Position numbers and translations under genes: made by a program. The notes under the pieces were generated by a model, which worked only from the letters and a program-made list of their open reading frames with translations, did no database searches and was not told the DNA's origin. A stretch of 64,000 nucleotides of DNA, taken from the NCBI GenBank assembly GCA_900539595.1, contig UQCQ01000001.1:80626-144625 (forward strand), read 5' to 3'. This document shows, in pieces, positions 14,615 to 64,000 of the stretch (positions are counted from its first letter, which is position 1; each line of letters starts with the position of its first letter). Origin of the DNA: an uncultured Mollicutes bacterium (lineage in GTDB: Bacteria > Bacillota_I > Bacilli_A > RFN20 > CAG-826).

Positions 14615-14616
14615 GG

Positions 14617-14647
14617 GCTAGTCTATTTTAGACTAGTTCCTAGGAAC
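14617..14647. promoter_or_regulatory. two abutting CTAG-rich perfect palindromes (CTAGTCTAttttTAGACTAG and GTTCCTAGGAAC) immediately upstream of the membrane-protein start
   Basis: Read directly. Contains AGGAACTAGT in gene orientation. The same 10-mer precedes the degV ATG. Confidence 0.3.
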
Positions 14648-14698
14648 ATGAAACCCATCCCCAGTGAAAACAAAGAAAAACGGAAGAGATTCCAAATT

Positions 14699-15454
14699 TT
14701 ATTTTTCACGCTTCTTAGGGTCAAAATGGGGCATCGGAAGGAGTTTATGCAGGTTCATTCGATGCAAGCGATCGATTCTTTCTTTCGTGGTTAAATCCGC
14801 GCATTCTCCCGTTTGAATATAGTGATCCAAAGTCGCATAGGTGAAGCCTAGTTTATCTTCATCGCTGCAACCAGATAGGCCGTCGCTAGGTGTCTTATCC
14901 ACAAGATGAGAAGGTAATCCCAGGACCCTTCCTATTTGTTTTACTTCTTCCACCAAAAGAAGCATTAAAGGACTCACGTCCCCCGCGGAATCACCGAATT
15001 TGGTGGAATAGCCTACATAATCTTCGCTGCGATTGCAGGTATTGATGACGCGTCCTCCCCCTTCTATGGACTGCGCCACGGCATAAAGAGTTGCCATGCG
15101 CAAACGAGGCGGCAAATTAATCCGAGCATCATGACTCAAAGAACAGGATGCCTCTATGTCCTTCTTCATGCCAAGGAACCCGTCGTTAATATTGATTTCC
15201 ATAAAGGGGATATCTAAAAAGCGAACCAAGGAACGAGCATCTTCGATGTCGCTTTGAACTCCATTGGGCATTAAAACGCCTAAAACCCTTTCTTTCCCAA
15301 GGGCTTTCACGCACAAAGCCGCGCAAACAGAAGAATCTTTTCCGCCAGAAATCCCAATAACCGCCTTGCATTTTGGACCATTGTTCTCAAAATAATCCAC
15401 CAGCCATCGAATCAATTCTTCCGCTGTTCTTTCAGGATTTTCTAGCATCTTCAC
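14699..15454 (-). CDS. nadE: NH3-dependent NAD+ synthetase
   Basis: SGGKDS PP-loop. Length 251 aa. Confidence 0.9.
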   Translation of the reverse strand: MKMLENPERTAEELIRWLVDYFENNGPKCKAVIGISGGKDSSVCAALCVKALGKERVLGVLMPNGVQSDIEDARSLVRFLDIPFMEININDGFLGMKKDIEASCSLSHDARINLPPRLRMATLYAVAQSIEGGGRVINTCNRSEDYVGYSTKFGDSAGDVSPLMLLLVEEVKQIGRVLGLPSHLVDKTPSDGLSGCSDEDKLGFTYATLDHYIQTGECADLTTKERIDRLHRMNLHKLLPMPHFDPKKREK

Positions 15455-50000: not shown

Positions 50001-50012
50001 TTTCTTTCCTCC

Positions 50013-53000: not shown

Positions 53001-53105
53001 AACATCCTGTTGAAACGAGGCTTGGAAGCGCGGAGAGAGATCGGCGACCATTCCTACTCCTGCTAGGAGGAGAACGGCGGATAGAAACAGGTTCTTCGCT
53101 TTCAT
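50013..53105 (-). CDS. 1030-aa secreted multi-domain surface protein with repeated Ig-like (HYR/DUF5011-type) domains
   Basis: N-terminal signal sequence MKAKNLFLSAVLLLAGVGMVA. Repeated motifs such as TYTICYTSYDKAGNKAESL and TYRFMIRVMDEAGN. ATG 53105; the track's TTG extension was rejected. Confidence 0.75.
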   Translation of the reverse strand: MKAKNLFLSAVLLLAGVGMVADLSPRFQASFQQDVLRAAGWSDFQEGDPSFGTSYQVPKMSYELNGVSYPASVIVTFPDGTQSADSTLFLDQAGVHTFEYSVLVNGEIHNITKQIKVGFPQMRVGNREKSSIEYITAEQSKELGAAGTAGMYVKLGMGDTLNFTKPIYLDEMNDTTALVKGYIAPLSKGSVDFNQLFIKLTDADDPNKFVILCYYSHVETGGDGRTTHSSSAMARSDAQPYFAGIHQTQGLHTNDKYGLWSGVVFDGYMKDKNGYKDTIDEAQFVFGFNYANKVVYGTGFGKGQTLDTVLDLDEVPTQVETAWTGFTSNRAFLSIYAESYSGSTANFVISEVAGVSAKQMADNSFTDSEEPEISIDTDFDSLPNGAVGYYYPVPTAKAYDQVSLDCPVKTEVFYNYFSSDRTSVKIKDGKFYMDKEGTYTICYTSYDKAGNKAESLHTISVFKNMDKPDFDMPAHEDHIAVGDFFSVNKKIATRGGVGEKTVEAYYEVDGKRFPIEGNGFRITELKTYKVMYRVTDMIGQVSEKGFDIRVVDSKKPILEKKIHYPKYLVSGGYYEFPTEKVFYYENGALTEKQLTLEVTDSNGTKTYANEDFCPVIIHNKDKVTIKAKCGDEVLQSDEIVVMKNMGTESSARSINLTNYLMSDGIKKELTPDDGMLLTTTKEEAKFDFVTPFYLDSFSLDIKALLGFANHSGIVVRITDFANDENQIEARIALNNDVTTFEVNGTKSVLVNNDINVGNNNYVLGYKNGSFTCGDIALPVKAFASGDAFQGFESLKGYMSLEFENCPVGANLHFVNFCQCGFSSRTARDRVSPVVQMDDNYGGTRNIHTTYHIDPAYSFDVLSPNTVFTLDVLSPSGQPVKALDGTLLQKADPTKGYDISLEEYGQYYFTLTTIEDSRFLSNGSELTISYYVSVYDDVAPVVEFSTGMKKEAKVGETILLPEFTASDNITKTENLIIQRVMLTPRGDYRYLDESYTAYTFQEEGTYRFMIRVMDEAGNIVSKSFETVVTKA

Positions 53106-53123
53106 ATGTTGATATCCTTTCAA

Positions 53124-54035
53124 TTAACCTTTGATGCCACCCATGGTTAAGCTACCCATGAAGCGATCCTTGAAGATTGCAAATAGCGTAACCACCGGGA
53201 GGGAGGAGAGAATGACCATGTTGAAGGCATAGACGCCGGTTTTGAGTTTGGTGTCCCCGGGGACGCCGGTACCGGCAATGAGTTGCCATAGCACATAGCC
53301 AAGAGTTGGTTTATCGAGTAAATAAACCATTGGGGTCTGGTAGTCGTTCCAGAACGTGACGAAGTTGATGAGGACGATGGTTAAGAAAACGTTACGGACA
53401 AGGGGGAAGCCAATCCGGAAGAGGATCTGCCAATTATTCGCTCCATCGATTTTTGCCGCTTCGAAGTAGCCATCCGGCATGCTCTTGAACGAAGCGTACA
53501 TCACAAAGAAATAAAGGCCGAGCATGTTGGCTTTAAGCATAATGACGCCCGCCATGTTGTTGACAAGACCCAGGGCGTAAGCTAGCTTCAATTCCGAGGG
53601 AAGAGAGCCAACAATCGGAATCATCATGGCAACTAGCACAGCCGTATAGACGATTTTGCTCGTTTTGAATTCAAACCTCGCGCAGGCATAAGCCGCAAGG
53701 CAGGGGACGAGGGTTTTGACGAAGGCCGAACCCACGGAATAAATCAAGGAGTTCAAAACGACGTTGAGGAGGGTGGATTCGCCGCCACTGCTTTTGGAGA
53801 TGTGGACCAATTTAAAGATTTCGAACAAATTGAAATAGAATTTCTTGTTCGTCATCATCAAATAGGTGCCGCTGAAATCCGCACGTTCCGGAGAACGGGT
53901 GGAAACGAAGAGGGCGTAGGCCAATAAGCCAAAGAGAATGGTCGTGTAGAGAAGTAAAATGACCATGATGATGATGGGGAACACGGTCAATTTGTTGCTG
54001 CGCATCCGATCTTTTTTACGTACTAATTTATGCAT
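53124..54035 (-). CDS. carbohydrate ABC transporter permease (LplC/YtcP-like)
   Basis: 6 TM with an EAA-like loop (EAAKIDGAN). ATG 54035 after the TGA-TTG junction. Confidence 0.85.
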   Translation of the reverse strand: MHKLVRKKDRMRSNKLTVFPIIIMVILLLYTTILFGLLAYALFVSTRSPERADFSGTYLMMTNKKFYFNLFEIFKLVHISKSSGGESTLLNVVLNSLIYSVGSAFVKTLVPCLAAYACARFEFKTSKIVYTAVLVAMMIPIVGSLPSELKLAYALGLVNNMAGVIMLKANMLGLYFFVMYASFKSMPDGYFEAAKIDGANNWQILFRIGFPLVRNVFLTIVLINFVTFWNDYQTPMVYLLDKPTLGYVLWQLIAGTGVPGDTKLKTGVYAFNMVILSSLPVVTLFAIFKDRFMGSLTMGGIKG

Positions 54036-54038
54036 CAA

Positions 54039-54974
54039 TCAGTCCTCCCTTGGGCCGAAGCGCTCCAGCAAATATTTGACCCCGAAAACAAGGGGAATCG
54101 TGATGAAGGTGCAAATTAAGCCGAATGCCGCCATTTGATGGAAGGCTTCCGCTTGGTAATTGCCCTGAACCGCATATTGTTGAATGTTGTTATAGATGAC
54201 ATATCCTGCAGGACCAGGGCCAAGGTTATTGAGATTCGAGCCAAAGAAAGTGAATAACGAATATTGGTTCACGAACATCGTGGCGATTCCCGTGACAATG
54301 AAGGTCGACAAAGTAGGAAAGGTAAGGGGGAGGGAGATGCTGAAGAATTCCCGGATGTGGCTCACTCCATCGAGCTGAGCCGCCTCATAGATATCGGTAG
54401 GAATCTCACTCATCTTATTCGAATAGATAAGGGTCGTCGTCCCGAAGTTGATGAAGGCATCGAAAAGAATAATCGTGATATAGGTGGTCTTTCGATCGGT
54501 GGCCAAAATATTGATGACCTTATCCGCGGGTAAATGTTCATGGGCAAAATAAAGGATTTCCAGGTCATTGAAATATTTGAAGAGAATGATCATGACCGTC
54601 GCGGAAAGAATCGAAGGCAAGAACAAGACGAATCGATAGAATTTGCTCCCTACAAAGCGTCTAGAAATGTAATAGGCGAAAAGGAGAGACAAAGGAATCG
54701 ATAAGACGGCGCTGCAGAGATAGAGAATCACCGCAATCCCCATGGATTCCAGGTAGATATAGCTTCCGCCTTCTTGTTGGAAACATTGGGCGAAGTAATA
54801 GAAGAATCCGCCATTGGGGTTGGCGTCCGCCCCGTAGTTGAAGGCGAGAAGGATCGAATTGAAATTAACGAAAAGATAGAAGACGCAAAACTGAAGGACA
54901 GGCCAGGCAAGAAGGATTAAGTGGAAAGCCAAATCCTTCTTGCGGTCTGGAGTACTCTTATGCTTTCGGCGCAT
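54039..54974 (-). CDS. carbohydrate ABC transporter permease (LplB-like)
   Basis: EAA loop (YEAAQLDGVSH). ATG 54974 overlaps the SBP stop (TAATG). Confidence 0.85.
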   Translation of the reverse strand: MRRKHKSTPDRKKDLAFHLILLAWPVLQFCVFYLFVNFNSILLAFNYGADANPNGGFFYYFAQCFQQEGGSYIYLESMGIAVILYLCSAVLSIPLSLLFAYYISRRFVGSKFYRFVLFLPSILSATVMIILFKYFNDLEILYFAHEHLPADKVINILATDRKTTYITIILFDAFINFGTTTLIYSNKMSEIPTDIYEAAQLDGVSHIREFFSISLPLTFPTLSTFIVTGIATMFVNQYSLFTFFGSNLNNLGPGPAGYVIYNNIQQYAVQGNYQAEAFHQMAAFGLICTFITIPLVFGVKYLLERFGPRED

Positions 54975-56692
54975 TATTTCATCCCGGCCCAAACGGTGTC
55001 TTTGTAATATTTATACATCTTGGCTTGATATTGCCCCGCGGTCAGGCCTTTGTCGTTGATGAAATCATCTTGCGGGAAATATTTGGCCGAGGAGGTCGCG
55101 TATCTTCTGGAAGAAAGCTGCTGTCCAAGTCCATTGGTATATTGGGTGGTGCGGCTTTCTGGGATGATGACTTCGCTATGATGGAAGTGTTCCCAATAAT
55201 TCTTACCGAAGTTGCTCATTTCCGCTTTATCCGCGTCGGTGATGTCGTATTGGAAATACTTGATCGCGTTGGTGGTGCGAGTGAATTCGCGGTAGGCTTC
55301 GTCGGTATTCATGTATTGGAGGAAGTCGCCGGCGAGTTTCCGTTTGGAATCATGGAGCCCCTTTTTAAGGAAGACCAAGGATCCGAGGGCACCAAGCGAA
55401 GTTTGCTTGGTGTTGGAATGCTCATCCGCGCGGGGGAGGGGCATCCAGCCAAAGTCCAACTGGCTCTTTTCGCTTTCGGCAAGAGAAGAGATGACTTCGC
55501 TGGCTTCCGATTCCCACCAATCGCCTTCCACGATCATCGCGATGGATTTGTTCTTCTGCTCCTGGTGAGCATTTAAACGTCCAAATTGAGAATTGATGAA
55601 GAAGTTTTGGGCATCAAGGTGGTTCGTGCTGTCGGTGACCAAATTGCAAAGCCATTTGTCTTTATTGGTGACCACGGTGCGGACAAAGTTCAAGGCGTGG
55701 TATTTGCCGGCCATACGTTGGACTTCATATCCGTCGTATTTGTTATCAACGCGATTAGGATGAACCGTCACTTCTTCCGTAACGGGCGAGCCGTCGGAAT
55801 TTAGCACAACATCCGTGCCTTTCTCATTGAATTTCACGCAGGTGATCTTGCCATCCATCGTGTAATTCACTTTGTTTTGGCTGGGTCCATCATAGAAAGC
55901 GGAAAGGGAATTGAGCAACATGCCAAAGTAATCTTTCGCGTTGCCTTCGCCTCTCCAAACAAAGGGAATCTGCTTTCCTTCATAGATATAATTCACGAGT
56001 TCGAAGAATTCGGCATAGGTCGTGGGAAGGCCATCGTCCGATGTGCCGTATTTCCCATCGGGTCCCGCGCTCTTTTTCTCATTGGCGTCGGCGATGAAGC
56101 GGAGTTCATTACCCGGGGCTTCGCTTTCATAGCCATCGGCAAAATAGAAATTGTATTTATTGAAGACGGTTTTGTTATAAACGATGCCGAAATTGGAAAC
56201 GTAATGGGGAACCGCATAATAATGGCTTTGTCCCTTGTCATCCATGATATTCATGAAATTAGCAACCCCATCATAGATTTTGCTCTCGATGGTTTTGTCT
56301 TTTTCATAGGGGTTCGTGCCCGTGACGAAATCCGTGATGTCTTCAAAGGCATCATCGCTGATGCAATTGAGGTAATTGAGCCCTTCGAAGAAATAAAGCT
56401 CGCTTTGGTTGTTCTTGATTTCCGCGGTGGACGGGGTCTTCTTTTGATCCGCAATCACGATTTGAACACCGGTTTTCCCGGATTCAAAGGAATCGTTCGC
56501 GTGGAGTTTTTCATAGCGTTCCTTGGCGGAGTAAAGCCATTTATTGCCATAGCCACCTTGATAGCATTTCACGTAAAGCTGGGTTTTGTTCTTATCAATC
56601 GAACTGTCACCGCAGCTGGCTAATCCACCAGCAACACCCGTCAACGCGATTGCGGCGAGAAGGGTCGTTTTCTTGTTCAACTTATACTTCAT
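54974..56692 (-). CDS. large extracellular solute-binding lipoprotein (family 1, LplA-type; oligosaccharide-binding)
   Basis: MKYKLNKKTTLLAAIALTGVAGGLASCG lipobox. 572 aa. RBS AGGAGG. Confidence 0.85.
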   Translation of the reverse strand: MKYKLNKKTTLLAAIALTGVAGGLASCGDSSIDKNKTQLYVKCYQGGYGNKWLYSAKERYEKLHANDSFESGKTGVQIVIADQKKTPSTAEIKNNQSELYFFEGLNYLNCISDDAFEDITDFVTGTNPYEKDKTIESKIYDGVANFMNIMDDKGQSHYYAVPHYVSNFGIVYNKTVFNKYNFYFADGYESEAPGNELRFIADANEKKSAGPDGKYGTSDDGLPTTYAEFFELVNYIYEGKQIPFVWRGEGNAKDYFGMLLNSLSAFYDGPSQNKVNYTMDGKITCVKFNEKGTDVVLNSDGSPVTEEVTVHPNRVDNKYDGYEVQRMAGKYHALNFVRTVVTNKDKWLCNLVTDSTNHLDAQNFFINSQFGRLNAHQEQKNKSIAMIVEGDWWESEASEVISSLAESEKSQLDFGWMPLPRADEHSNTKQTSLGALGSLVFLKKGLHDSKRKLAGDFLQYMNTDEAYREFTRTTNAIKYFQYDITDADKAEMSNFGKNYWEHFHHSEVIIPESRTTQYTNGLGQQLSSRRYATSSAKYFPQDDFINDKGLTAGQYQAKMYKYYKDTVWAGMK

Positions 56693-56751
56693 ATATAAGT
56701 CCTCCTTTAATTACCTAAAAAGGCATAGTGATTGGTTTTAAAAAAGTCTAA

Positions 56752-56765
56752 AGCAAGCGCTTTCA
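56752..56765 (-). promoter_or_regulatory. candidate catabolite-responsive element (cre) upstream of the SBP/permease operon
   Basis: In gene orientation: TGAAAGCGCTTGCT, against the consensus WTGNAANCGNWNNCW. Confidence 0.4.
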
Positions 56766-56904
56766 CGTTTTCAACGAGCGTATCACCATGGATATTATTT
56801 GTGAGAAATTTAATAGGTGCTCTCTTTAGAAAACGGAATAAACCTACGTTTGTTCAGAATCTTTTAAACACAAAACGATAGGTTCATTAAAATCTGACGA
56901 AGCA

Positions 56905-56934
56905 CGGAGGATGACGTTTTTCCGCCATCCTCCG
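56905..56934 (-). terminator. hairpin after the upstream lipoprotein gene (CGGAGGATG...CATCCTCCG); a partial terminator
   Basis: 9-bp stem, 12-nt loop and a weak U-tract. Confidence 0.4.
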
Positions 56935-56939
56935 CAAAA

Positions 56940-58787
56940 TTATTTCTTCTCAGGAGCGACGTAAACTTCGCCGTTAACCGTCAATCCATCCATGGCAGTC
57001 ATGATGCCGTGTTTCCAGTGTTTGATAAGGCCCAGGTATTTGCGGACCTTCAACGTGCAATTGGTGAATTGGGAATCGTTGCAGTGCTGCGTCGCGAAGA
57101 TCATGACGCAATCGCGGTCCCCTAAGTCGAAGGTGCAATCCGTGACAATGTTCGTCATGAAGCGGAAGGCTCCAACCCAGCCCCAATCGAGTTTGGTCAT
57201 ATCGGGATCATCGATGGAGAATGCGCCACCGGTAGCGCGCAAGGTCACGTTTTCAAGCTTCGTATTTTGAATGCCGCCAGCAAGAAGCGGGCAGTTATTC
57301 GTTCCGTTGAACCAAACGTCATTGAACGTCAGATTCTTAATGGTTGCTCCCTCCAACTGGCAGAAAAGACCATAGGAATAATTGCCTTGTCCCGTGATGG
57401 TTTTGCCATTTCCATCTAGCGTCCCTTTAAACGCATAATGGTTTACGTCATTTTTCCATCCACCAATCCAGGGCACGCCCAGGAAATTTTCGGCTTTATA
57501 GACGTCGTGGCTGATATTCTCCATCAACTTGTAATATCCGGTAACCACGTGGTCAGGATCAGAAGAACGAACCGGCTTAATCAAGCTGAAGGTTTCGTCA
57601 TTATCGTAAATTAACGCGGTAGCCATCGTGACTGGAACTTTGATTTCGTGGTCAAATTCCGGAACGATGCCATCTTTTGGAGTCGTGACGACGACCTTCA
57701 ATGCACCGACGCCATGGTGTTCTTTATGTTCTTTAAGCGCGGCGACATCCAAATTATTAAGGTCGGTTCCCAAATCATAGGAAGTGGTCTCATTCACTTC
57801 GTAACGGATGCTCTTCACCGTGTCTTTCGTGGCATCGAAGCTCGTGCCCGTTAAGGCAATCTTCGGAGTCGCATTCAAGTCGACGTCTTGGTTATCGACG
57901 ATCTTTTTGTTGAATTTAATAGGTTCTTGGCAAACGCAGCCAAAGACGTCGTATTCTTCGCTTTCCGTGTTCCAAGACGCGTCATTATGAGAGATGGTCA
58001 AGGTGGTAGACGCTTCCACTCCGTTATAGTCTTCCCCTTCTTGGACCGTCGCCTTCACGTAGAAGACTTTGGGGTCTGAGGAAGCGGGGGAATTCAAGAA
58101 AGAATAATCCGCGCCTAACTGTTCTGCGGTTTTGTATTCTCCATTCTCTGAATCCGCGAAGGTATAAACGATTTCCCCAAACGTGGAAGTCACGCCTTCT
58201 AGGCTAGAGAAGGGTTTGAAACCACAGACCTTTTCTAAGGGTTCCAGCCCTTCGATGACGTTTTCTTTCTTGCTTAAAGTGACATTGGTTTGAACCGTTA
58301 AATCACTATAGGTAAACGTCATCTTCAAATCTTGGGAGTTCAAATCTCCCACAGTGAAACTCGTCGCTCCCGAGGTCGGATAGGAATATTGGATTTTCGC
58401 CTTTTTGGCATCGCTTAATACCGTTCCTTGGCAGAATTCGCATTTCACCGCGAATTCGGCGTGTTCCATATCAAAGGTATCCCCAACGCAATAATGGGTT
58501 TGGAAGGAACCAGAAATCGTTAGTGCTTTCGTTCCTTTGTGGTTATTCGCATCGATGGGAGTTTTAACCGGGGCCTCGATCTCTGCCCCCGTCATGTCAA
58601 AAAACTTATCGCACCCCGAACAGGTTTGATAGGCTTCTGTCCCTTCTTCGCAGCAGGTGGGGAACACCTCTTCATGGGTTTCAAACTCATGAACGTGCTC
58701 TTTTTGGCCCCCACAGGAAACTAGTCCCATCAAGGCCAAAGAAGGCAGCACCAGCAACCGGACTTTTGGATTTTTCATCATCTTCAT
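56940..58787 (-). CDS. surface lipoprotein with a C-terminal beta-helix (GLUG-like) module; paralog of 46140..48020
   Basis: MKMMKNPKVRLLVLPSLALMGLVSCGG lipobox. ATG 58787 with GGAAAGGAG. C-terminal YAFKGTLDGNGKTITG...GATIKNLTFNDV. Confidence 0.75.
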   Translation of the reverse strand: MKMMKNPKVRLLVLPSLALMGLVSCGGQKEHVHEFETHEEVFPTCCEEGTEAYQTCSGCDKFFDMTGAEIEAPVKTPIDANNHKGTKALTISGSFQTHYCVGDTFDMEHAEFAVKCEFCQGTVLSDAKKAKIQYSYPTSGATSFTVGDLNSQDLKMTFTYSDLTVQTNVTLSKKENVIEGLEPLEKVCGFKPFSSLEGVTSTFGEIVYTFADSENGEYKTAEQLGADYSFLNSPASSDPKVFYVKATVQEGEDYNGVEASTTLTISHNDASWNTESEEYDVFGCVCQEPIKFNKKIVDNQDVDLNATPKIALTGTSFDATKDTVKSIRYEVNETTSYDLGTDLNNLDVAALKEHKEHHGVGALKVVVTTPKDGIVPEFDHEIKVPVTMATALIYDNDETFSLIKPVRSSDPDHVVTGYYKLMENISHDVYKAENFLGVPWIGGWKNDVNHYAFKGTLDGNGKTITGQGNYSYGLFCQLEGATIKNLTFNDVWFNGTNNCPLLAGGIQNTKLENVTLRATGGAFSIDDPDMTKLDWGWVGAFRFMTNIVTDCTFDLGDRDCVMIFATQHCNDSQFTNCTLKVRKYLGLIKHWKHGIMTAMDGLTVNGEVYVAPEKK

Positions 58788-58950
58788 AGCAGCTCCTTTC
58801 CTTTCGTTACAAGAAGATTGATTTCGTAGGAGGAGGTACAAGACGTTAAGCAAGCCATCAATGACCAAGGGATTGGCTCTTTAACGTTTCGCCCTTCAAG
58901 TTGAGGATGGAGGGGCTCAGGGGACCAATCGTCCCCGTTGCCCTAGAAAT

Positions 58951-60192
58951 CTATTTATGTTCAATCGTTTCGGTAGCCCCGTTGTGCAAACGGCTTTCTT
59001 CCGCGGCAAAGGCCATAAGGTGACTTTCAATGGAAGCTTCTAGAGTTGTTCCGCCCGGTTTATCCGAGACGATGAAGTCATAGAGGGCGTTAATTAACCC
59101 ATCATCGCCTCCGCCGTGTCCGCTCACCGCGTCAACAAGAGTGGAGATTTCAATCGTCTCCTTCTTCTTTCCAAATTCCATGATGTCGATGCGACCCGCC
59201 TCTTCGTCGAGGTCGATTTCTCCTAACGTCCCATAGAATTTCATGATGCGTCCTCCCCCGTAGGTAAAGGCCGTCATGCGGAGGTTCGCCGTCACGCCAT
59301 TTTGGAAACGCATAATCGTCATCTCGTTATCCACGACGTCGTTATCGCAGGCGAAGACGCAACGTCCATAAGGGCCGTGGTCCAAGGCATCGATAATGGC
59401 TTCGTCCGTAATGGGGCGGACATCGGTAATCATCTTCTTGCCCCAGAAGTTATGGACAAGATAAGCCTCGTAGGCATCGTAAGGGCATTGGCCGCGGTAT
59501 TTGCAGTTTTGGCAGCGGTCGCTCGCCCCTTCCGGCTGATTTTCTTTCTTAAAATAACGGAGGTCTCCCCTGGAATTGAGGGATTCGCATTTGCTGCCCG
59601 AATACCAAACGAGCAAATCGAGGTCATGGCAGCATTTGGCCAAAATCATCGGAGAGGTCTCTTCGCTTTTCCGCCAATTGCCGCGAACAAAGGAATGGGC
59701 TTGGTGGAGGTAGCCGACATTTTCAATCGAATCGATCATCACGAGTTGGCCGATTTTCCCCGCGTCGAGAAGGTCTTTGACCCTGCGGAAAGCAGGAGCA
59801 AACCGAAGCACGTGGCAAACAAAGATTTTATGGCCGTATTTCCGATGGGCTTCTAGAAGTTCTTCCACTTCTTCTTTCACCCCCGAGATCGGTTTTTCGC
59901 AGAGAATGTCATAACCAAGTTTCAAAGCTTTGATGCAATGGCCCACATGGTCGCGGTCTTGGGTGGCGACAATTAAAATATCGCCGCGATTTTTAGCGAA
60001 GAATTCGTTCTCCTCGTAGAAGCAATTCTCGTCTTTTAATTGGAATTGCTCTTTGGCTTGGCGGACCCGTTCATGGTTGATATCGCAGACGGCAACCAAT
60101 TCATAACGGTCCTTTTGAAGAAACATCCTCTCCAAATAACACATCCCACGATGTCCTAAGCCGATGCAGCAGACTTTAAACCTTTTTTCCAT
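58951..60192 (-). CDS. Gfo/Idh/MocA-family NAD(P)-dependent oxidoreductase with a Cys-rich insert (CQNCKYRGQC)
   Basis: N-terminal Rossmann motif CCIGLGHRG, an EKP motif, and length 413 aa. Confidence 0.85.
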   Translation of the reverse strand: MEKRFKVCCIGLGHRGMCYLERMFLQKDRYELVAVCDINHERVRQAKEQFQLKDENCFYEENEFFAKNRGDILIVATQDRDHVGHCIKALKLGYDILCEKPISGVKEEVEELLEAHRKYGHKIFVCHVLRFAPAFRRVKDLLDAGKIGQLVMIDSIENVGYLHQAHSFVRGNWRKSEETSPMILAKCCHDLDLLVWYSGSKCESLNSRGDLRYFKKENQPEGASDRCQNCKYRGQCPYDAYEAYLVHNFWGKKMITDVRPITDEAIIDALDHGPYGRCVFACDNDVVDNEMTIMRFQNGVTANLRMTAFTYGGGRIMKFYGTLGEIDLDEEAGRIDIMEFGKKKETIEISTLVDAVSGHGGGDDGLINALYDFIVSDKPGGTTLEASIESHLMAFAAEESRLHNGATETIEHK

Positions 60193-60212
60193 TGTTCTTG
60201 CCTTCTTTCTTT

Positions 60213-61409
60213 TTAAATCGATTCCGTTAAGTTGGCTTTGACCTGATTTAACGTGGTTTGGCTGATGCCGCAGACTGTTTTTAAGTAATGGCTAATCGCT
60301 CCGCTTAGGGAGTTGTCGCTGGTTTTGTAATTCTCCATCATCGCTTGGTGCAAAGCCCCAAATCCGACGTAGTTATTCGCATCATCCTGCATGACGCCGC
60401 TCGAATCAAATTCCCCATCGACGATATTGCTTCTCCAACGCTTGGAGTTATAAATCGAGGTCAATTCGAAGTCCTTGCATAAATCTTCATAACTAACTCC
60501 AAGCAATCCATTCACCAAATAGGCAAGGGTTCCCGTGCGGTCGGCTCCTGCCGTGCAATGGAAGGTCAACGGATAGCTTTCCTTCTTGGCGAGCAATTCA
60601 AACGTCTTTTTGAAGTTCGCATGCGAAGTCGCGTAATATTTTTTGCTCTGGGGGATAATCGAATCGTATTGGCCCATGCCTAGATTCACGTAATTGACCC
60701 CGGAAATCGGGTGTTCCGACTTGGAATAATCCGAACTTCCTGAGCTATAACGGATATCGAGTTCCGTCTTCATGCCAAGTTCTTTAAAGCGCGAATCTGT
60801 CGTATTGTCCGCGCTGCTCCAGGCGGCACTGCGATAGAGGCATCCGTAACGGACACGGTGGGTATCATCGATCTTCCATCCCCCACAATCGCGCATATTC
60901 TTAATGGTATTGTTCGTGTTGATCGTTCTTACGGGCCCTTCTAGAACAAAGGAATCCACAGGAGAAACCATGCTCGGGCTTTTAATCCGATAATAATAGG
61001 TGCCGGGTATCAAGTTATAAACGGGCATGGTTCCCACAGATTTCCTTAAATCCGAATAGGAACGCTCGATATGTTCAAATGCCTCATCCGTTGCAATTTG
61101 AAGGGTATACCGTTCGACCGCTGAAGTGGTGACTTTCCACCTTAACGTCAAAGGAACCGTGTTATCCCCAGGGTTCGAAGAAAGGGAAGCTAGTGTCGAA
61201 GCGGGATTCTTACTATTTAAATAAGCCCTGGCAGGAGCATAAAGCAAATCGATGGATTTCCCGCCGATGGGATCGAGGATTTGGATATTATCCTTATTTT
61301 CTGAGGTGGCGGATTTTTCTGAAGAGGCCGGGGGTTCCACGTTTCCCCCTCCACAGGAAACAAGGCTTAATAAGGCAAAGGCTATAAAAGGGATGATTCT
61401 ATTTTTCAT
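60213..61409 (-). CDS. lipoprotein protein-tyrosine/dual-specificity phosphatase (Y_phosphatase3-like) with an N-terminal beta-sandwich domain
   Basis: MKNRIIPFIAFALLSLVSCGGG lipobox. Catalytic CX5R loop HCTAGADRTG. Confidence 0.8.
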   Translation of the reverse strand: MKNRIIPFIAFALLSLVSCGGGNVEPPASSEKSATSENKDNIQILDPIGGKSIDLLYAPARAYLNSKNPASTLASLSSNPGDNTVPLTLRWKVTTSAVERYTLQIATDEAFEHIERSYSDLRKSVGTMPVYNLIPGTYYYRIKSPSMVSPVDSFVLEGPVRTINTNNTIKNMRDCGGWKIDDTHRVRYGCLYRSAAWSSADNTTDSRFKELGMKTELDIRYSSGSSDYSKSEHPISGVNYVNLGMGQYDSIIPQSKKYYATSHANFKKTFELLAKKESYPLTFHCTAGADRTGTLAYLVNGLLGVSYEDLCKDFELTSIYNSKRWRSNIVDGEFDSSGVMQDDANNYVGFGALHQAMMENYKTSDNSLSGAISHYLKTVCGISQTTLNQVKANLTESI

Positions 61410-61532
61410 AAAGAGGGGCCTCCGAAAAAAGGAATATTAGGAATGCACTTAATATTAACCATAATCTTGGGCAAACGTCCTTCGCCTTCCGCTCAAAACC
61501 CTATTCTTTTTTCGCTTCTATTCCTTGATTTC

Positions 61533-63119
61533 TTAGTTCTTTTGGATAAATTCCATCGTTTTTTCGGCCATCTCATCGATGGAAACACTGCTATAGCCCG
61601 CTAACGTGCTTTCTAGGGTATTGTGCACCCGGTCTTTCCAGTAACTAGGGAGGGCGCGGTAGCCGATTGCCGTACCTAGAACAGAGCCAACAGTCGCCCC
61701 ATTGCAATCGGTGTCGAAGCAGGCTCCGACCGCCATGCAGATGGATTTGCCATAATCCTTGTTGCCGTATAAAAGCGAGGCGGTGACGATTTCGGCATTG
61801 GAGATGGTGTGGCACCAATGATGGCCCTTCCATTCGTCCCAACGGCTACGAATGTCAGCAATGCAATCTTCTGCGGAAACGCCGGATTCGTGTTTTTCAA
61901 TGATTCCAGAAACCGCTTTATGTAATCTCGACGTGGAGGGAATTTGGGATAATCCCGTCCGAATGATGGCTTCGATATCATCCGTCACGAACGCTTCCGC
62001 GATCATGGCCGCCACCCACATGGAGCCATAGACCCCGTTTTTAACATGGGAAACACGGGCATCGCGATAAGCCATCACCGCGGCCATTTCGGGATGGCCC
62101 GGATTGATATAGCCATAGAAATCAGCACGAATTTGAGCTCCAATCCATTCACGGTAAGCATTTTTATATTCCGCGCTTTCGGGAGGGACATAGCCATTGA
62201 TCAAATTGATGTAAGCGACGCGTTCCGCCGTGCAATAGGCGTATTTGGTCTGGGTGGAAAGCCACACCTCCGCCACATCCGCGGACTTAAAATCCCTTCC
62301 ATAACGCTTTAAAACTTCGTAGGCGATAAGGATGTAATTCGTATCGTCATCCGATGGCATGCGATTAAAGTCGCTTGGATAGGCGCGTTGTTTAATCGGG
62401 AAAGTGATGTCAGAGCAATCGATTTTTTCGATTTCTTCCAAACTGATATAGCGGTGCAACGGATAATTGTTGGTCCTAGTTAATACCTTCTCCATATCGG
62501 GCATCTTGATGCATTCAACGGGCTTGCCAAGGTAACAGCCGCAGATGCGCCCCATCCATCCGCCATGCACCTTATCTAAAAGTGCATCGCCACTAGGACA
62601 GGCATGTTCGTCGTTAGCGACATAGCCATCCCGAAGCGCTTTAATCGAGTTCAGGTCATTGGGTTCGACGTATCGATACCCATTACGAGTCGGAAGCGAG
62701 TCCACCATCTTGAAAAGGACATCAGCCAACTCCTCCTTCCGTTTGGTGGAAGGCAATTTGGAAACGGCCAGGAAAACGTCTTTGAGATTCTCGACGTCTT
62801 TGCCTTCGTCTTGCAGTTGCTCATATTCGATTTCAAGGCTTTTCGCATAGGATTCCCAGGCATGCATCTTGCCGTAATCGGGGATGTATTCCTTATCCGT
62901 CCTTCCATCGCTAACGGCTTCATCGTTTCGATCGCAAAGATAATCCATCGTCACGCCAAACATGGTGGCAATGGCAATAAGCTTATCAATGGTTGGCAAG
63001 CCAGCACCGGATTCCCATTTCTGAACGGACTGGCGAGTAACATCGAGTTTCTCTGCAAACGCCTCTTGGGTAATCCCATTTTTGTTTCTTAAAGCGTAGA
63101 TTTTATCGGAGATAGCCAT
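61533..63119 (-). CDS. fusion of an HTH_XRE DNA-binding domain and an ADP-ribosylglycohydrolase (ARH/DraG-like) domain
   Basis: N-terminus ITQEAFAEKLDVTRQSVQKWESG (XRE HTH). C-terminal ARH-type motifs (GACFDTDCNGATVGSVLG). Length 528 aa. Confidence 0.8.
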   Translation of the reverse strand: MAISDKIYALRNKNGITQEAFAEKLDVTRQSVQKWESGAGLPTIDKLIAIATMFGVTMDYLCDRNDEAVSDGRTDKEYIPDYGKMHAWESYAKSLEIEYEQLQDEGKDVENLKDVFLAVSKLPSTKRKEELADVLFKMVDSLPTRNGYRYVEPNDLNSIKALRDGYVANDEHACPSGDALLDKVHGGWMGRICGCYLGKPVECIKMPDMEKVLTRTNNYPLHRYISLEEIEKIDCSDITFPIKQRAYPSDFNRMPSDDDTNYILIAYEVLKRYGRDFKSADVAEVWLSTQTKYAYCTAERVAYINLINGYVPPESAEYKNAYREWIGAQIRADFYGYINPGHPEMAAVMAYRDARVSHVKNGVYGSMWVAAMIAEAFVTDDIEAIIRTGLSQIPSTSRLHKAVSGIIEKHESGVSAEDCIADIRSRWDEWKGHHWCHTISNAEIVTASLLYGNKDYGKSICMAVGACFDTDCNGATVGSVLGTAIGYRALPSYWKDRVHNTLESTLAGYSSVSIDEMAEKTMEFIQKN

Positions 63120-63169
63120 AATGAATATTTCCTTTGTTGTTGCTAAAAATTATGAGTCAGGAGACGTAG

Positions 63170-63203
63170 TTTGCAAACAACCCATCGTTGCATTTTTTGC
63201 AAC
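63170..63203. promoter_or_regulatory. palindromic operators in the XRE-ARH promoter: TTTGCAAA (overlapping -35) and GTTGCA-N5-TGCAAC
   Basis: Read directly. Minus-strand promoter TTTGCA-17-CATAAT. RBS AAAGGAA. Confidence 0.4.
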
Positions 63204-63320
63204 TAACGGTTGTCAATGCAGATTTCGCACCCATCATCTTTCCACGTTCAAAATGGCCAGAAAAACATCTGGTGGCATGCCACTAGCTACATCAAAGCGA
63301 GAACGTTTTTTTGCTGTTTT

Positions 63321-63358
63321 GCGGTAATAAAACGATGATTTTTTCAACTTATTACCGC
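63321..63358. repeat. 10-bp inverted repeat GCGGTAATAA / TTATTACCGC with a 18-nt loop, overlapping the stop codon of the upstream ATPase gene
   Basis: Read directly. No adjacent U-tract on either strand. Confidence 0.3.
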
Positions 63359-64000
63359 AAAAAAGGATTTTCTGCTTGAAGGAATTCAATAAGATTCGCG
63401 TGAACAATGCCATTCCTATGCTGCAACAAATGGTCCATAGTCAAAACGAATTTTGGATAGTTATCGCGAATGGATTCCAAAGGACGATATTCTCGTTCTT
63501 CTGTTTTGGGAACGCCGTTTTCATCGTAGATTCCATTATCGATTGTCTTGGCCACTTGCACATAGGCATATTGATCCCAGCCTTTGCGAAGGGTGAAGTC
63601 GACTTCTAGTCTTCCGATTTTTCCAATACTTGCTTCGTACCCCATGCATTTTGCATAGTTAAAAACGATATTTTCAAGAACCGGCCCATAATTCACGCGA
63701 TTATCTACATTGCTAGCAAAATAGAAGCTTAAATCCGCTAAATAAAACTTTTCCTCGCGGGCCAAAGACTTTTTGCTTTTCAAATCAAAACGTTCGCACC
63801 TAGAAATAATCTGAGCCTTTTCAAGGATTTCCAAATAATGGTAGATGGTTCTCATGCTATGAACCACTCCATTCGTTTTAGACAATTCTTCCGCCAAGCT
63901 CCTCGCGGAGAATATGGCCCCGAAATTATTGATGACGTAACGTTGGACCTGTTCGAATAAAGCTCCATTTTTGATGGTTTTATTCGTCAGGACATCCTTT
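63352..64000 (-). CDS. C-terminal part (DUF4143 region) of an AAA-family ATPase; the gene continues past the window end
   Basis: The minus-strand frame stays open to nt 64000 (KDVLTNKTIKNGALFEQVQRYVINNFGAIFSARSLAEEL...). The track's start is an internal TTG. Confidence 0.65.
   Translation of the reverse strand, partial: KDVLTNKTIKNGALFEQVQRYVINNFGAIFSARSLAEELSKTNGVVHSMRTIYHYLEILEKAQIISRCERFDLKSKKSLAREEKFYLADLSFYFASNVDNRVNYGPVLENIVFNYAKCMGYEASIGKIGRLEVDFTLRKGWDQYAYVQVAKTIDNGIYDENGVPKTEEREYRPLESIRDNYPKFVLTMDHLLQHRNGIVHANLIEFLQAENPFLR

Follow-up and report, generated by a model that had tools for sequence, protein, structure and literature searches.

A helix-turn-helix fused to an ADP-ribosylglycohydrolase-like module as a candidate self-regulating regulator of ribosyl-compound catabolism in gut Bacillota

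What might a DNA-binding domain be doing on an ADP-ribosylglycohydrolase (ARH)-like protein? The question is raised by a 64-kb stretch of DNA from an uncultured Mollicutes bacterium (contig UQCQ01000001.1; the whole of this stretch is hereinafter termed the window). Here, a single open reading frame on the reverse strand (61533..63119; stop codon at 61533–61535) codes, from its ATG, for a 528-amino-acid protein. An earlier sequence-only reading of the locus described this protein as a fusion of an XRE helix-turn-helix (HTH) with a full ARH domain, a description confirmed both by the reading frame itself and by Pfam, which recovers its HTH_3 and ADP_ribosyl_GH domains. The fusion is uncharacterized but common in the gut Bacillota of humans and ruminants, and one carrier, Hydrogeniiclostridium mannosilyticum (L026), is available in culture; a search for the architecture found it to be widespread, while a known role for it was not found, and literature searches returned no published study of an HTH–ARH fusion. 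We propose, with about an even chance of being right, that it is a substrate-responsive, self-regulating one-component regulator, or trigger enzyme, for the catabolism of a ribosyl compound. The support for its ligand, activity and DNA binding is comparative throughout.

The HTH (residues 7–61; 62937..63101, reverse strand, as are all the coding features below) is of the XRE/Cro-C1 type and matches the Pfam HTH_3 model at 2e-16 (60 bits against a cut-off of 23). Its sequence matches in the PDB are ComR, P22 C2, ImmR-like proteins and the 434 repressor, and it also matches antitoxin-type XRE families. The recognition helix reads TRQSVQKWE in this protein and SRQSVQKWE in the consensus, with column conservation of 100% at Q30, W35 and E36 and 96% at Q33 and K34. 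It is followed by a linker (residues 64–92; 62844..62930) predicted to be flexible, with a pLDDT below 50 in an AlphaFold2 model whose mean pLDDT is 84.8; in the alignment its P80..W88-E89 motif is invariant in the close family and retained in HTH-less homologs. The ARH module then opens with a family-specific helical N-terminal extension (residues 93–185; 62565..62843), modeled with helices at 95–104, 110–120, 126–140 and 156–161, which the stand-alone homologs contain as well (their alignment starts at about residue 85–95). The ARH (DraG/ARH3-like) fold domain proper (residues 186–492; 61644..62564) matches Pfam ADP_ribosyl_GH (PF03747) over model positions 1–286 of 287, at 1.1e-48 (166.9 bits against a cut-off of 26.2). 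Full-length homologs span 48–98% identity, and the single reading frame is conserved over its whole length across >100 clusters and no fewer than 74 genomes at the species level; HTH-less orthologs exist at 57–60% identity. The XRE fusion forms one sub-branch within a large family of stand-alone ARH-like proteins of ~445 aa, and its ARH module belongs to a distinct, uncharacterized ARH-like subfamily comprising at least 528 clusters at 50% identity.

Does the ARH module retain an active site? Foldseek matches the model to ARH3 (with ADP-ribose), DraG, MJ1187 and Tri1, with TM scores of 0.6–0.8 (0.80 to the target for MJ1187) and a probability of 1.00 in each case; further matches are the Tre1–Tri1 complex (6dre) and a Listeria ART–ARH pair (8za7). 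The all-helical fold and the full-length Pfam match are those of the ARH/DraG superfamily (PF03747; DraG, human ARH1, ARH3, Tri1 and MJ1187). Sequence identity to any characterized ARH is 12–19%, phmmer reached no solved ARH structure from the sequence, and a family profile reaches DraG, MJ1187 and Tri1 at the two terminal motifs only. At these, the N-terminal G-x3-G-x3-G-x-x-L-G-x-P-x-E and the C-terminal D-x-D-(T/S/C) motifs align with those of the three proteins, HMMER pairing E202 with DraG E28 and D469, D471 and C472 with DraG D243, D245 and T246. Since the profile stops at the terminal motifs, the middle DDD motif was assigned by its position and by the full-length Pfam match: DDD(T) sits at the place of the canonical ARH (T/S)DDT, with D258 and D259 counted as metal-site residues by motif only.

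The putative metal and catalytic residues, derived from the HMMER alignments, the motifs and conservation, are E202 (62514–62516), D257-D258-D259 (62343–62351), H358 and D469-T470-D471-C472 (61704–61715). Among 129 family representatives sampled without bias, 125 carry E202, 124 carry D257, 125 each carry D258 and D259, 124 carry D469 and 126 carry D471, the putative metal-site positions all being at least 96% conserved; H358 is present in 123, and either C or S occupies position 472 throughout the family. In the fusion protein and all 25 aligned close relatives, none of the catalytic positions varies. The pattern of a binuclear metal site (Glu, (T/S)-D-D, D-x-D-T) is thus matched by a putative metal site in which both Thr ligands are substituted (T to D257 and T to C472), and C195 replaces the Asp of the GDALG motif. 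The prospect of a degenerate domain, raised together with the sequence-only reading, did not materialize, as the ARH domain retains its putative metal and catalytic residues. Relative to the known ARHs, the module additionally has the extension of ~90 aa, an insertion of ~20 aa after the catalytic Glu and, of course, the fusion to a DNA-binding domain.

The promoter region offers the clearest view of what the HTH might bind. A promoter scan predicts a sigma-70-type promoter (63149..63176, reverse strand) with a −35 TTGCAA at 63176–63171, a 16-nt spacer and a −10 CATAAT at 63154–63149, and a ribosome-binding site, AAAGGAAA (63128..63135, reverse strand), can be read from the sequence ~9–10 nt 5′ of the ATG. 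Two predicted operators lie upstream of this core: O1 (CAACTAACGGTTG; 63200..63212), a distal, strong palindrome of the form CAAC-N5-GTTG identified by exact match, a position weight matrix (PWM) and orthologs, and O2 (CAACCCATCGTTG; 63178..63190), a proximal palindrome identified by exact match and the consensus of 55 orthologs. Their centers fall at about −64 and −42, respectively, from the predicted transcription start, i.e., 22 bp or two helical turns apart, with O2 abutting the −35 hexamer. They are the only two exact copies of CAAC-N5-GTTG in the 64 kb, and O1, with a score of 22.6, is the sole PWM match in the window.

Palindromic operators and autoregulation had already been suggested by the sequence-only reading, and the footprint in orthologs upholds the idea, but the unit is CAAC-N5-GTTG, present twice, rather than the parse then claimed. 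Both motifs that it named are present. GTTGCA-N5-TGCAAC (63187–63203) is unique in the window, with 0.09 copies expected, and consists of the two inner arms of O1 and O2. The other, TTTGCAAA (63170–63177), turns out to be the −35 hexamer region: it has 5 copies in the window against 3.4 expected, at least five being reached in 28 of 100 shuffles. We rejected it as an operator given this chance frequency, its non-palindromic form in orthologs and its position, which is that of the −35 TTGnnn. The interval originally marked for the locus ends at 63203, and O1 runs 9 nt past this point.

The O1/O2 layout recurs without gaps 5′ of orthologs that share as little as 48% (and up to 97%) identity and whose flanks are otherwise unrelated. 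The ungapped consensus of 55 promoters comprises O1, an A-rich spacer, O2, TTG and TG-n-TATAAT, giving a core promoter of TTG-N(about 18)-TG-n-TATAAT, with a GGAG/GGA-rich stretch at the position of the ribosome-binding site; O2 is weaker than O1 in most orthologs. A site at the O1 position with at most one mismatch is found in 58 of the 74 orthologous loci, and 56 of these 58 sites are placed at −82 to −117 relative to the ATG. The density of CAAC-N4-7-GTTG is 2.37 per kb 5′ of the orthologs as compared to 0.046 per kb elsewhere in the loci (~50-fold). A PWM scan of 1.08 Mb of these loci placed 47 of 53 matches in the gene's own promoter, with 3 of the other 6 also upstream of the gene, a result that is partly circular in that the PWM was trained on the promoter sites it recovers; the exact-pattern count is free of this. 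Apart from the sites upstream of the gene and three PWM matches, neither the exact pattern nor the PWM yielded further operator sites in the 64-kb window or the 1.08 Mb of loci. Further, the operator is found in 50 of 76 HTH-bearing loci versus none of 7 HTH-less loci (Fisher p = 0.001). Because the layout is conserved in diverged orthologs and absent from HTH-less homologs, autoregulation via palindromic operators in the gene's own promoter, as predicted from sequence, is strongly supported. In silico, the fusion thereby displays the traits of an XRE/Cro-C1 regulator, namely an HTH_3-type domain and a palindromic operator in its own promoter. On the far side of the operators, a terminator-like hairpin (63319..63360, reverse strand; an inverted repeat with perfect 12-bp arms and an 18-nt loop) takes in the last part of the DUF4143 ATPase gene upstream, whose stop codon lies at 63352–63354, and extends into the intergenic DNA. 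It separates that gene from the promoter of the fusion gene and may act as a terminator. No terminator was found in the intergenic DNA between the fusion gene and the genes downstream of it, so that transcription may run on into the carbohydrate cluster there; Rfam gave no RNA family in 56000–64000.

Can the gene neighborhood point to the substrate? The sequence-only reading had entertained a signaling or defense role based on the neighbors in the window, a surface tyrosine-phosphatase lipoprotein and an AAA/DUF4143 ATPase; this is unsupported, because neither is a conserved neighbor across 78 loci. Indeed, when 932 reading frames from 80 loci were clustered, no neighbor was conserved among the 78 loci and no neighbor cluster occurred in more than 7, and a Pfam census of the 146 immediate neighbors of the XRE-fused genes gave 144 families, the top ones being seen 7 times. 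With nothing conserved among the neighbors, deducing function from the synteny of the XRE-fused clade was dropped. A PfkB gene does lie 4–13 nt downstream of the fusion gene in four loci (L012, L016, L022 and L031), but this adjacency, seen in 4 of 74 HTH-bearing loci, contrasts with 6 of 6 evaluable HTH-less loci (p = 7e-7). The adjacent PfkB kinases score best against the ribokinase model (212–299 bits). The window has no PfkB gene within its 64 kb; a sugar ABC importer (a solute-binding protein, SBP, and two permeases) is encoded on the same strand 5–8 kb downstream of the fusion gene, as it also is at about +8 kb in an 80%-identical ortholog (L002). Since the window holds neither a PfkB gene nor a second operator, the gene itself is the sole target identified.

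The wider ARH-like family is more informative, and the catabolic link rests mostly on it (35–47% identity) because the neighborhood of the XRE clade is not conserved. Partners recurring in this family, as neighboring genes or as fused domains, are PfkB kinases of the ribokinase-like type, a nucleoside hydrolase and, together with their extracellular binding proteins, carbohydrate ABC importers (linked in L088, L090 and L091), whereas those of the known ARHs are ADP-ribosyltransferases (ARTs). The family includes ARH–PfkB and ARH–IU_nuc_hydro fusions, and the ARH module is separately fused to XRE, LacI and GntR DNA-binding domains, in the usual position of the effector domain, in keeping with a sensor role. 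Three of the operons have the order GntR-ARH > SBP > 2 permeases > ARH, LacI-ARH > SBP > 2 permeases > PfkB, and LacI > permeases > SBP > ARH > ARH-PfkB. A cassette of ARH, PfkB and transporter, comparable in its parts to yegTUV of Escherichia coli, is seen in the wider family, in the close HTH-less relatives and in the above four XRE-fused loci, with the window having the importer but no PfkB. Such partners, i.e., a ribokinase-like kinase, a nucleoside hydrolase and importers, point to the hydrolysis of an imported ribosyl compound and not to protein de-ADP-ribosylation; the gene context thereby argues for a putative hydrolase acting on a ribosyl substrate other than an ADP-ribosyl linkage. 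Weighing against this reading, the ARH enzymes characterized so far cleave ADP-ribosyl substrates, and the ADP-ribose that they release is not used by ribokinase; to our knowledge, riboside hydrolase activity would be new for the ARH fold.

Taken with the operators, this context suggests the following mechanism. Dimers of the N-terminal XRE HTH would bind O1 and O2 in the gene's own promoter, and this occupancy would most probably repress transcription, because the promoter consensus is near ideal, with a TTG −35 and an extended TG-n-TATAAT −10. Operators at −42 and −64, upstream of the core promoter, also have the geometry of activators, as with ComR, PlcR and lambda cI at PRM; hence, while we infer repression to be the likelier sign, activation retains a substantial share of the probability. 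The ARH module would hydrolyze an imported riboside-type compound, and binding of this compound, probably along with its hydrolysis, would alter the DNA binding of the fusion. Its own expression would then follow the supply of substrate, as would that of co-transcribed genes, e.g., the ribokinase-like gene in the four orthologous loci. A similar double duty is known from trigger enzymes such as PutA and BirA, which act as catalysts in the pathway that they regulate. The computational results themselves establish the domain architecture, the retention of the catalytic residues, the conserved geometry of operators and promoter, the joint occurrence of operator and HTH, and the fusions and operon partners of the family; what we infer is which ligand is bound, that the module is catalytically active, that the ligand affects DNA binding, whether regulation is negative or positive, and any further targets outside the own promoter.

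Other readings give the ARH module a different job. It could sense ADP-ribose or O-acetyl-ADP-ribose, or be an active enzyme that strips ADP-ribose from proteins or nucleic acids and whose activity is coupled to DNA binding, which would tie NAD-consuming reactions to transcription in the manner of NrtR, the Nudix–winged HTH repressor that senses ADP-ribose. The closest solved structures (ARH3 with ADP-ribose, DraG and Tri1) are true ADP-ribosyl hydrolases whose acidic metal-site residues are retained here, and the HTH and its autoregulatory operator are real. Yet the low identity to these enzymes and the reach of the profile to two terminal motifs weaken the analogy; NAD, sirtuin and ART genes are not recurrent among the neighbors, the recurrent partners being instead the kinase, nucleoside hydrolase and importers; and some paralogs are secreted lipoproteins with PKD domains, located where ADP-ribosylated cytoplasmic proteins are absent. 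We consider such a role less likely than a catabolic one and, by itself, improbable. A slimmer prospect is that the module is a pseudo-enzyme-like pure sensor, in a regulator of a dispersed, unlinked regulon that has autoregulation as but one target. The loss of catalytic residues in 3 of 10 XRE-fused cluster representatives (P0127, P0131 and P0135) versus 7 of 116 others (p = 0.03) would fit this, as would gene contexts as variable as those of global regulators and the LacI and GntR fusions, which put the module at the normal place of an effector domain. However, the catalytic positions are invariant in the fusion protein and its 25 close relatives, the flanking 1.08 Mb and the window offer no extra operator, and the HTH-less orthologs indicate that the module functions without DNA binding.

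It is quite unlikely that the fusion is an orphan protein of the immunity or antitoxin kind, with the ARH part reversing ADP-ribosylation by a toxin of a competitor or phage (cf. Tri1 and Listeria Lmo0067) and the XRE part providing antitoxin-style autorepression. The Foldseek matches to Tre1–Tri1 and the Listeria pair, the resemblance of the HTH to antitoxin-type XRE families and to PADLOC HTH models, and the match of the upstream ATPase to the defense candidate PDC-S01 in PADLOC all lend themselves to such a reading. Against it, no ART or other conserved partner adjoins the gene in the 78 loci, and the adjacent ART gene of toxin–immunity pairs (Tre1–Tri1, DraT–DraG and Listeria ART–ARH) is absent from the most frequent neighbor families; the PDC-S01 neighbor is confined to the window and its same-species counterpart L001; and the genes that accompany the family are those for sugar uptake and kinases. 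As PADLOC matched the HTH alone, leaving the ARH part unmatched, membership in a defense system was rejected. Finally, the chance that two adjacent genes were merged into one reading frame next to fortuitous palindromes is negligible: nothing was found in favor of such an artifact, which is refuted by the conservation of the full-length frame in the above-noted clusters and genomes and of the position and sequence of the operator across otherwise unrelated promoters.

The proposed self-regulating catabolic regulator has partial counterparts among known systems. NrtR combines a Nudix-like domain with a winged HTH and is an ADP-ribose-responsive repressor of NAD metabolism, while NadR combines an HTH with NMN adenylyltransferase and ribosylnicotinamide kinase domains. 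Like the fusion, they are one-component proteins in which a domain that is, or derives from, a ribosyl-nucleotide enzyme is joined to an HTH and controls DNA binding. Their sensors, however, are Nudix or nucleotidyltransferase domains and their HTH classes differ as well; their operators lie upstream of NAD genes. The NrtR-type traits of a Nudix-like effector and operators at NAD metabolism genes are not seen here, the effector being an ARH domain by Pfam and the only operator detected by PWM being in the own promoter. In the RRNPP family (ComR, PlcR and Rgg), whose members are usually activators, a TPR sensor binds peptides. The resemblance lies in the placement of an XRE HTH at the N terminus, ahead of a large ligand-binding domain, and in palindromic sites located on the −35 box or immediately 5′ of it; in contrast, the proposed sensor of the fusion is a hydrolase module of the ARH fold, and its gene has no linked peptide gene.

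At the level of whole loci, literature searches for an ARH/PfkB/ABC cassette gave nothing beyond yegTUV and the Bacteroidetes rus loci. The parts of E. coli yegTUV, namely the ARH-family YegU, the PfkB kinase YegV, a transporter and the GntR-type single-target repressor GgaR/YegW (PMC10819704), form the same set of ARH, PfkB, transporter and dedicated transcription factor as in the wider family considered here. In yegTUV, the transporter belongs to another type and regulation falls to a protein of its own, whereas the family considered here carries its DNA-binding domains as fusions, either to the ARH (XRE, LacI and GntR) or to the kinase (AraC); the likeness is one of parts lists. The rus (ribose-utilization) loci include ADP-ribosylglycohydrolase genes, and their authors propose a role for these loci in releasing ribose from a range of ribosylated nutrients (bioRxiv 10.1101/574913). 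They too occur in gut bacteria and bring together ribokinases, transporters and regulators with a variable set of hydrolases, among them products of ARH-family genes, but they belong to another phylum, use SusC/D instead of ABC importers and have regulators as separate proteins, so that the likeness is at the level of gene content.

Many proteins are annotated as "ADP-ribosylglycohydrolase family protein" without a known substrate, E. coli YegU included, and here a coherent subfamily of the above-noted size has fusions and operons pointing to ribosyl-compound catabolism. We tentatively extend this to a broader proposal, which we think has somewhat less than an even chance: the ARH fold in this subfamily may be the ligand-sensing and catalytic module of an undescribed class of one-component transcription factors with at least three origins (the XRE, LacI and GntR fusions), its true substrate being not ADP-ribose but a riboside-type nutrient that gut and environmental bacteria import. 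The fusions to three DNA-binding domains make the question of the ligand directly testable, the XRE form having a defined pair of 13-bp operators. If true, this large group of ADP-ribosylglycohydrolases would have a biochemical function not seen before, the XRE fusion would unite in one self-contained protein a substrate-inducible enzyme and the repressor of its own gene, and the ARH fold would join the enzyme-derived sensor domains of bacterial transcription factors. As the fusion is so common in gut Bacillota, the compound that it acts on would probably be a relevant gut nutrient.

The fusion gene (61533..63119, minus strand) codes for a 528-aa protein, in which Pfam recovers an XRE-type HTH_3 domain (residues 7-61; 2e-16) followed by a complete ADP_ribosyl_GH (ARH) domain (residues 186-492; 1.1e-48, 167 bits against a gathering score of 26) covering positions 1-286 of the 287 in the model, in agreement with the architecture proposed in the sequence-only reading. 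An NCBIfam search matched the HTH only, leaving the ARH part without a match; hence, there is no dedicated NCBI model for this ARH subfamily. The AlphaFold2 model built on 26 homologues (mean pLDDT 84.8) displays a five-helix HTH (residues 3-62), a low-confidence linker predicted to be disordered (residues 64-92; 62844-62930), a helical extension (residues 93-185) and, beyond it, the ARH core. In Foldseek searches of the PDB the top matches are all of the ARH fold, namely ARH3 with ADP-ribose, DraG, MJ1187 (TM 0.80 to target), Tri1 and Listeria Lmo0067, at 12-19% identity. A phmmer search with the fusion protein retrieved no solved ARH structure, and the family profile matches DraG, MJ1187 and Tri1 at two terminal motifs only; by sequence comparison, the domain is remote from the solved ARHs.

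In the family-profile alignment, GGWMGRICGCYLGKPVE of the fusion protein pairs with DraG GAFLGLAVGDALGATVE, making E202 the equivalent of DraG E28 and placing C195 where the Asp of GDALG would be. Likewise, FDTDCNGATVGS pairs with GGDADTTGALAG of DraG, equating D469, D471 and C472 with DraG D243, D245 and T246. The stretch D257-D258-D259-T260 is the predicted counterpart of the central (T/S)DDT, as judged by the motif and the full-length Pfam match and not by a residue-level alignment. All these residues are invariant in an alignment of 26 close relatives, as are YCTAER (295-300), REWIGAQIR (323-331) and SHxKNGxYG (357-365). Among 129 unbiased representatives of the wider family, E202, D258 and D259 are each kept in 125, D257 and D469 in 124, H358 in 123 and D471 in 126, with position 472 being Cys in 97 and Ser in 31. 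The catalytic positions are thus retained across the family and the ARH domain is not degenerate; the loss of all ligand residues, which the sequence-only reading had named as a refutation, is not seen. By its profile, fold and metal-site motifs, we assign the protein to the ARH superfamily, within which it belongs to a separate subfamily marked by ligand substitutions (T to D257, T to C/S472) and by the extra extension. Four cysteines, C193, C195, C296 and C472 (61704-61706), do not vary within the close family, and at two of these positions a cysteine stands in for a canonical ARH residue close to the metal site; in the wider family, Asn sometimes occurs at C195 and Ser often at C472. These cysteines could conceivably bind a thiophilic metal or have a redox function.

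A promoter scan places a -35 box, TTGCAA, at 63176-63171 and, after a 16-nt spacer, a -10 box, CATAAT, at 63154-63149 (both minus strand). The end of the upstream gene lies within a hairpin at 63319-63360 whose 12-bp arms pair perfectly, indicating that this promoter region is the fusion gene's own. Two palindromes had been put forward as operators. One, TTTGCAAA at 63170-63177, occurs at chance frequency in the window (5 copies versus 3.4 expected) and coincides with the -35 hexamer, which is TTGATT, TTGCTT or TTGACG in other species; we accordingly discard it. The other, GTTGCA-N5-TGCAAC at 63187-63203, is indeed present as a single copy, but it is not the conserved unit. Upstream regions of orthologues (73-97% protein identity) share one block with unrelated flanks, and the unit conserved in this block is the palindrome CAAC-N5-GTTG; the motif first noticed represents the inner arms of two such palindromes. 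These are the distal O1 (63200-63212, centred near -64) and the proximal O2 (63178-63190, centred near -42), with centres that assume a start ~7 nt after the -10 box; they are the sole exact copies in the 64 kb. Across 55 non-identical promoters, in an ungapped alignment anchored at O1, the consensus order is a strong O1, an A-rich spacer AAAAATA, a weaker O2 (GCAAc-N5-gTTt/g) exactly 22 bp downstream of O1, the TTG of the -35 box directly after it, ~18 nt, and TG-n-TATAAT. A further near-perfect 18-bp palindrome of the TGGCA..TGCCA type (CTGGTGGCA/TGCCACTAG; 63269-63286) is found in the intergenic region ~55 nt upstream of O1, outside the conserved block, and is retained in part at the same-species locus L001.

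CAAC/GTTG pairs with a 4-7 nt spacer occur at 2.37 per kb in a 230-nt zone around the orthologue start codons as compared to 0.046 per kb elsewhere in the loci, an exact-pattern count that is not circular. With start codons refined by tblastn before positions were taken, an operator with at most one mismatch is present in 58 of 74 loci, 56 of these at -82 to -117 from the ATG. The symmetrised consensus, TTACAACCGnCGGTTGTAA, carries 17.7 bits. A PWM scan of the 1.08 Mb of fetched loci, a partly circular step, gave 53 hits, with 47 lying within 160 nt upstream of a fusion gene and three of the other six also upstream of one, farther off or where the start was misassigned. Residues of the recognition helix, (S/T)RQSVQKWE, are conserved (Q30, W35 and E36 at 100%; Q33 and K34 at 96%), and the operator scores above threshold in none of the 7 loci with HTH-less homologues versus 50 of 76 HTH-bearing loci (p = 0.001), which together tie the predicted operator to the HTH. 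The earlier proposal of autoregulation, now via O1 and O2, is well supported in silico by this conservation of operator position and sequence among orthologue promoters and the co-occurrence with the HTH. As to its sign, repression is favoured by the extended -10 promoter, which is close to consensus; the position of the operators upstream of the core promoter would also suit an activator. Pattern and PWM scans of the 64-kb window found no second operator beyond this promoter.

The fusion protein has matches in more than 5,300 clusters at 90% identity, with both domains present in nearly all of the best 120. Scanning one genome per species by motif gave at least 588 loci, the best 80 of which all come from Bacillota of the gut or rumen, chiefly Clostridia, Oscillospiraceae, Acutalibacteraceae and uncultured Bacilli; the window is 97% identical to L001, from an uncultured Bacilli MAG of the human gut. 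Databases name these proteins only 'ADP-ribosylglycohydrolase family protein' or 'transcriptional regulator with XRE-family HTH domain/ADP-ribosylglycohydrolase', and a full-text literature search found no study of the XRE-ARH fusion. Thus, of the possibility raised earlier that the architecture is widespread with a known role, the first half holds and the literature yielded nothing for the second.

An exhaustive phmmer search of 1.84 billion representatives recovered 528 clusters at E <= 1e-30. Among the best 150, the alignment starts at residue 1 in only ~13, and most are proteins of ~440-460 aa that match residues 85-525, i.e., the helical extension and ARH domain without the HTH; hence, the XRE fusion is a sub-branch of a stand-alone family. 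The linker residues P80, W88 and E89, invariant in the close family, are also kept in HTH-less homologues and may form a short motif for docking on the ARH module or for dimerisation. Among the HTH-less close relatives (57-60% identity), a PfkB (ribokinase-like) kinase adjoins the ARH gene in all six evaluable loci (L019, L050, L072, L081, L085 and L086) as compared to 4 of 74 HTH-bearing ones (p = 7e-7). The best model for these kinases is the ribokinase equivalog (212-299 bits; cut-off 299.65). In three of the six (L050:4192-5451, L072:6645-7892 and L081:4748-6004), the kinase, of 415-419 aa and encoded immediately upstream of the ARH gene, bears a C-terminal AraC-type HTH, a second fusion of enzyme and DNA-binding domain in the ARH cassette. 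Directly after the HTH-less ARH gene in these same loci (L050:6819-8831, L072:9368-11398 and L081:7405-9447), and after an XRE-fused gene in L011 (9613-11673), lies a gene for a secreted ARH + PKD lipoprotein of 670-686 aa with the motifs GGWIGQMVG..., QDD and GQDSDCN and a C-terminal beta-rich region; the D-S-D-C-N motif is one that it shares with the ARH protein.

More distant members (30-40% identity) share the catalytic motifs of the window protein and include fusions to a LacI HTH (P0248, P0264), a GntR HTH (P0270, P0206), a full LacI (P0198/P0276), PfkB (P0207/P0281) and an inosine-uridine nucleoside hydrolase (IU_nuc_hydro; P0266). Each adjoins sugar ABC importer genes (loci L087-L092), in operons of the form GntR-ARH > SBP_bac_1 > 2 permeases > ARH, LacI-ARH > SBP > 2 permeases > PfkB, LacI > 2 permeases > SBP > ARH > ARH-PfkB, ARH-IUNH > SBP and LacI-ARH > permease. 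These associations link the predicted ARH module to a ribokinase-like kinase, a nucleoside hydrolase and carbohydrate-type ABC importers, and the joining of XRE, LacI and GntR DNA-binding domains to ARH in place of the usual effector points to ARH as the ligand-recognising part. On one metagenomic contig, RES-domain toxin and AbiEii genes (L090:2092-2751 and 13680-14702) flank the LacI-ARH/ABC/PfkB operon, probably by coincidence. A matching parts list is seen in E. coli yegTUV with its GntR-type repressor GgaR (PMC10819704) and in Bacteroidetes ribose-utilisation loci that include ARH genes (bioRxiv 10.1101/574913).

Conservation is lacking around the XRE-fused genes: when 932 ORFs from 80 loci were clustered, none of the neighbour clusters was present in more than 7 loci, and the 146 immediate neighbours represent 144 Pfam families, with PfkB and AraC-type HTH the commonest (7 each). 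Only a PfkB kinase recurs as a partner, 4-13 nt downstream of the fusion gene in four loci. Hence, the phosphatase lipoprotein and DUF4143 ATPase beside the fusion gene are incidental, and the signalling or defence role once surmised from them loses its footing, with neither conserved across loci and PADLOC matching the fusion protein's HTH only. The AAA_14/DUF4143 ATPase gene upstream (63352-64000, minus strand) runs off the window end; its full-length counterpart (L001:6492-7769) matches the PADLOC phage defence candidate PDC-S01 (E = 2.9e-124). Downstream, a same-strand array (42098-61409, minus strand) includes genes for the Y_phosphatase3 lipoprotein, a GFO/IDH/MocA oxidoreductase and a 642-aa lipoprotein, and further codes for a solute-binding protein (SBP) plus two permeases, an Ig-like surface protein of 1036 aa, a DUF4838 protein, a protein of 630 aa in which a hyaluronate-lyase N-terminal match stays below threshold, a GH36 alpha-galactosidase and an ABC ATPase. 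The array resembles a glycan-utilisation locus. Its importer also occurs at ~+8 kb in L002, the locus of an 80% identical orthologue. The 64-kb window has no PfkB or ARH paralogue and fits the ARH/importer pattern of the family loosely. No terminator was detected in the intergenic DNA downstream of the fusion gene; thus, read-through into the array is possible.

The best-supported reading of the fusion protein is a one-component regulator or trigger enzyme, which has in silico support from its architecture, intact catalytic constellation, operator-promoter geometry, co-occurrence of operator and HTH, and the fusions and operon partners of the family. XRE dimers would occupy O1 and, cooperatively, O2 beside the -35 box, probably repressing a strong promoter. 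The ARH module would bind, and probably hydrolyse, an imported ribosyl compound, and we infer that this event would allosterically alter DNA binding, with synthesis of the fusion protein, and of the products of any co-transcribed genes, following substrate supply. The sequence-only reading instead had the ARH domain sense ADP-ribose or O-acetyl-ADP-ribose, or act as a de-ADP-ribosylase. The fold and metal site do match those of true ARHs, but neither NAD-related nor ADP-ribosyltransferase genes recur as partners and those that recur are catabolic, making this version doubtful; moreover, an ARH fold outside the cell, as in the PKD lipoproteins, sits poorly with protein de-ADP-ribosylation.

For the window protein, which has lost no catalytic residue, a purely sensory role in control of a dispersed regulon is likewise unlikely. 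Such losses are seen in 3 of 10 XRE-fused cluster representatives versus 7 of 116 others (p = 0.03). The three are P0127, P0131 and P0135, where, for example, E202 is replaced by C or G and D469 by E or A, a hint suggesting that some XRE-fused lineages drifted to non-catalytic pure sensors. An orphan immunity or antitoxin role, for which no linked toxin was found, is very improbable.

NrtR, NadR and trigger enzymes combine an enzyme-derived sensor with an HTH, and the fusion protein, a member of the XRE HTH family, would be analogous to these. On examining the defining features of the NrtR family and of ART-ARH immunity pairs, we found them lacking and reject membership in either. In terms of its sensor, the protein is predicted to be a one-component regulator that senses through an enzyme-derived domain, in this case an ARH fold; as judged from comparative sequence analysis, the fusion is real, widespread and uncharacterised, with a well-defined autoregulatory operator. 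An HTH-ARH fusion is not startling by itself. However, the three independent DNA-binding fusions, together with those to the kinase and nucleoside hydrolase and a ready-made operator, make the substrate of this large 'ADP-ribosylglycohydrolase' family experimentally approachable.
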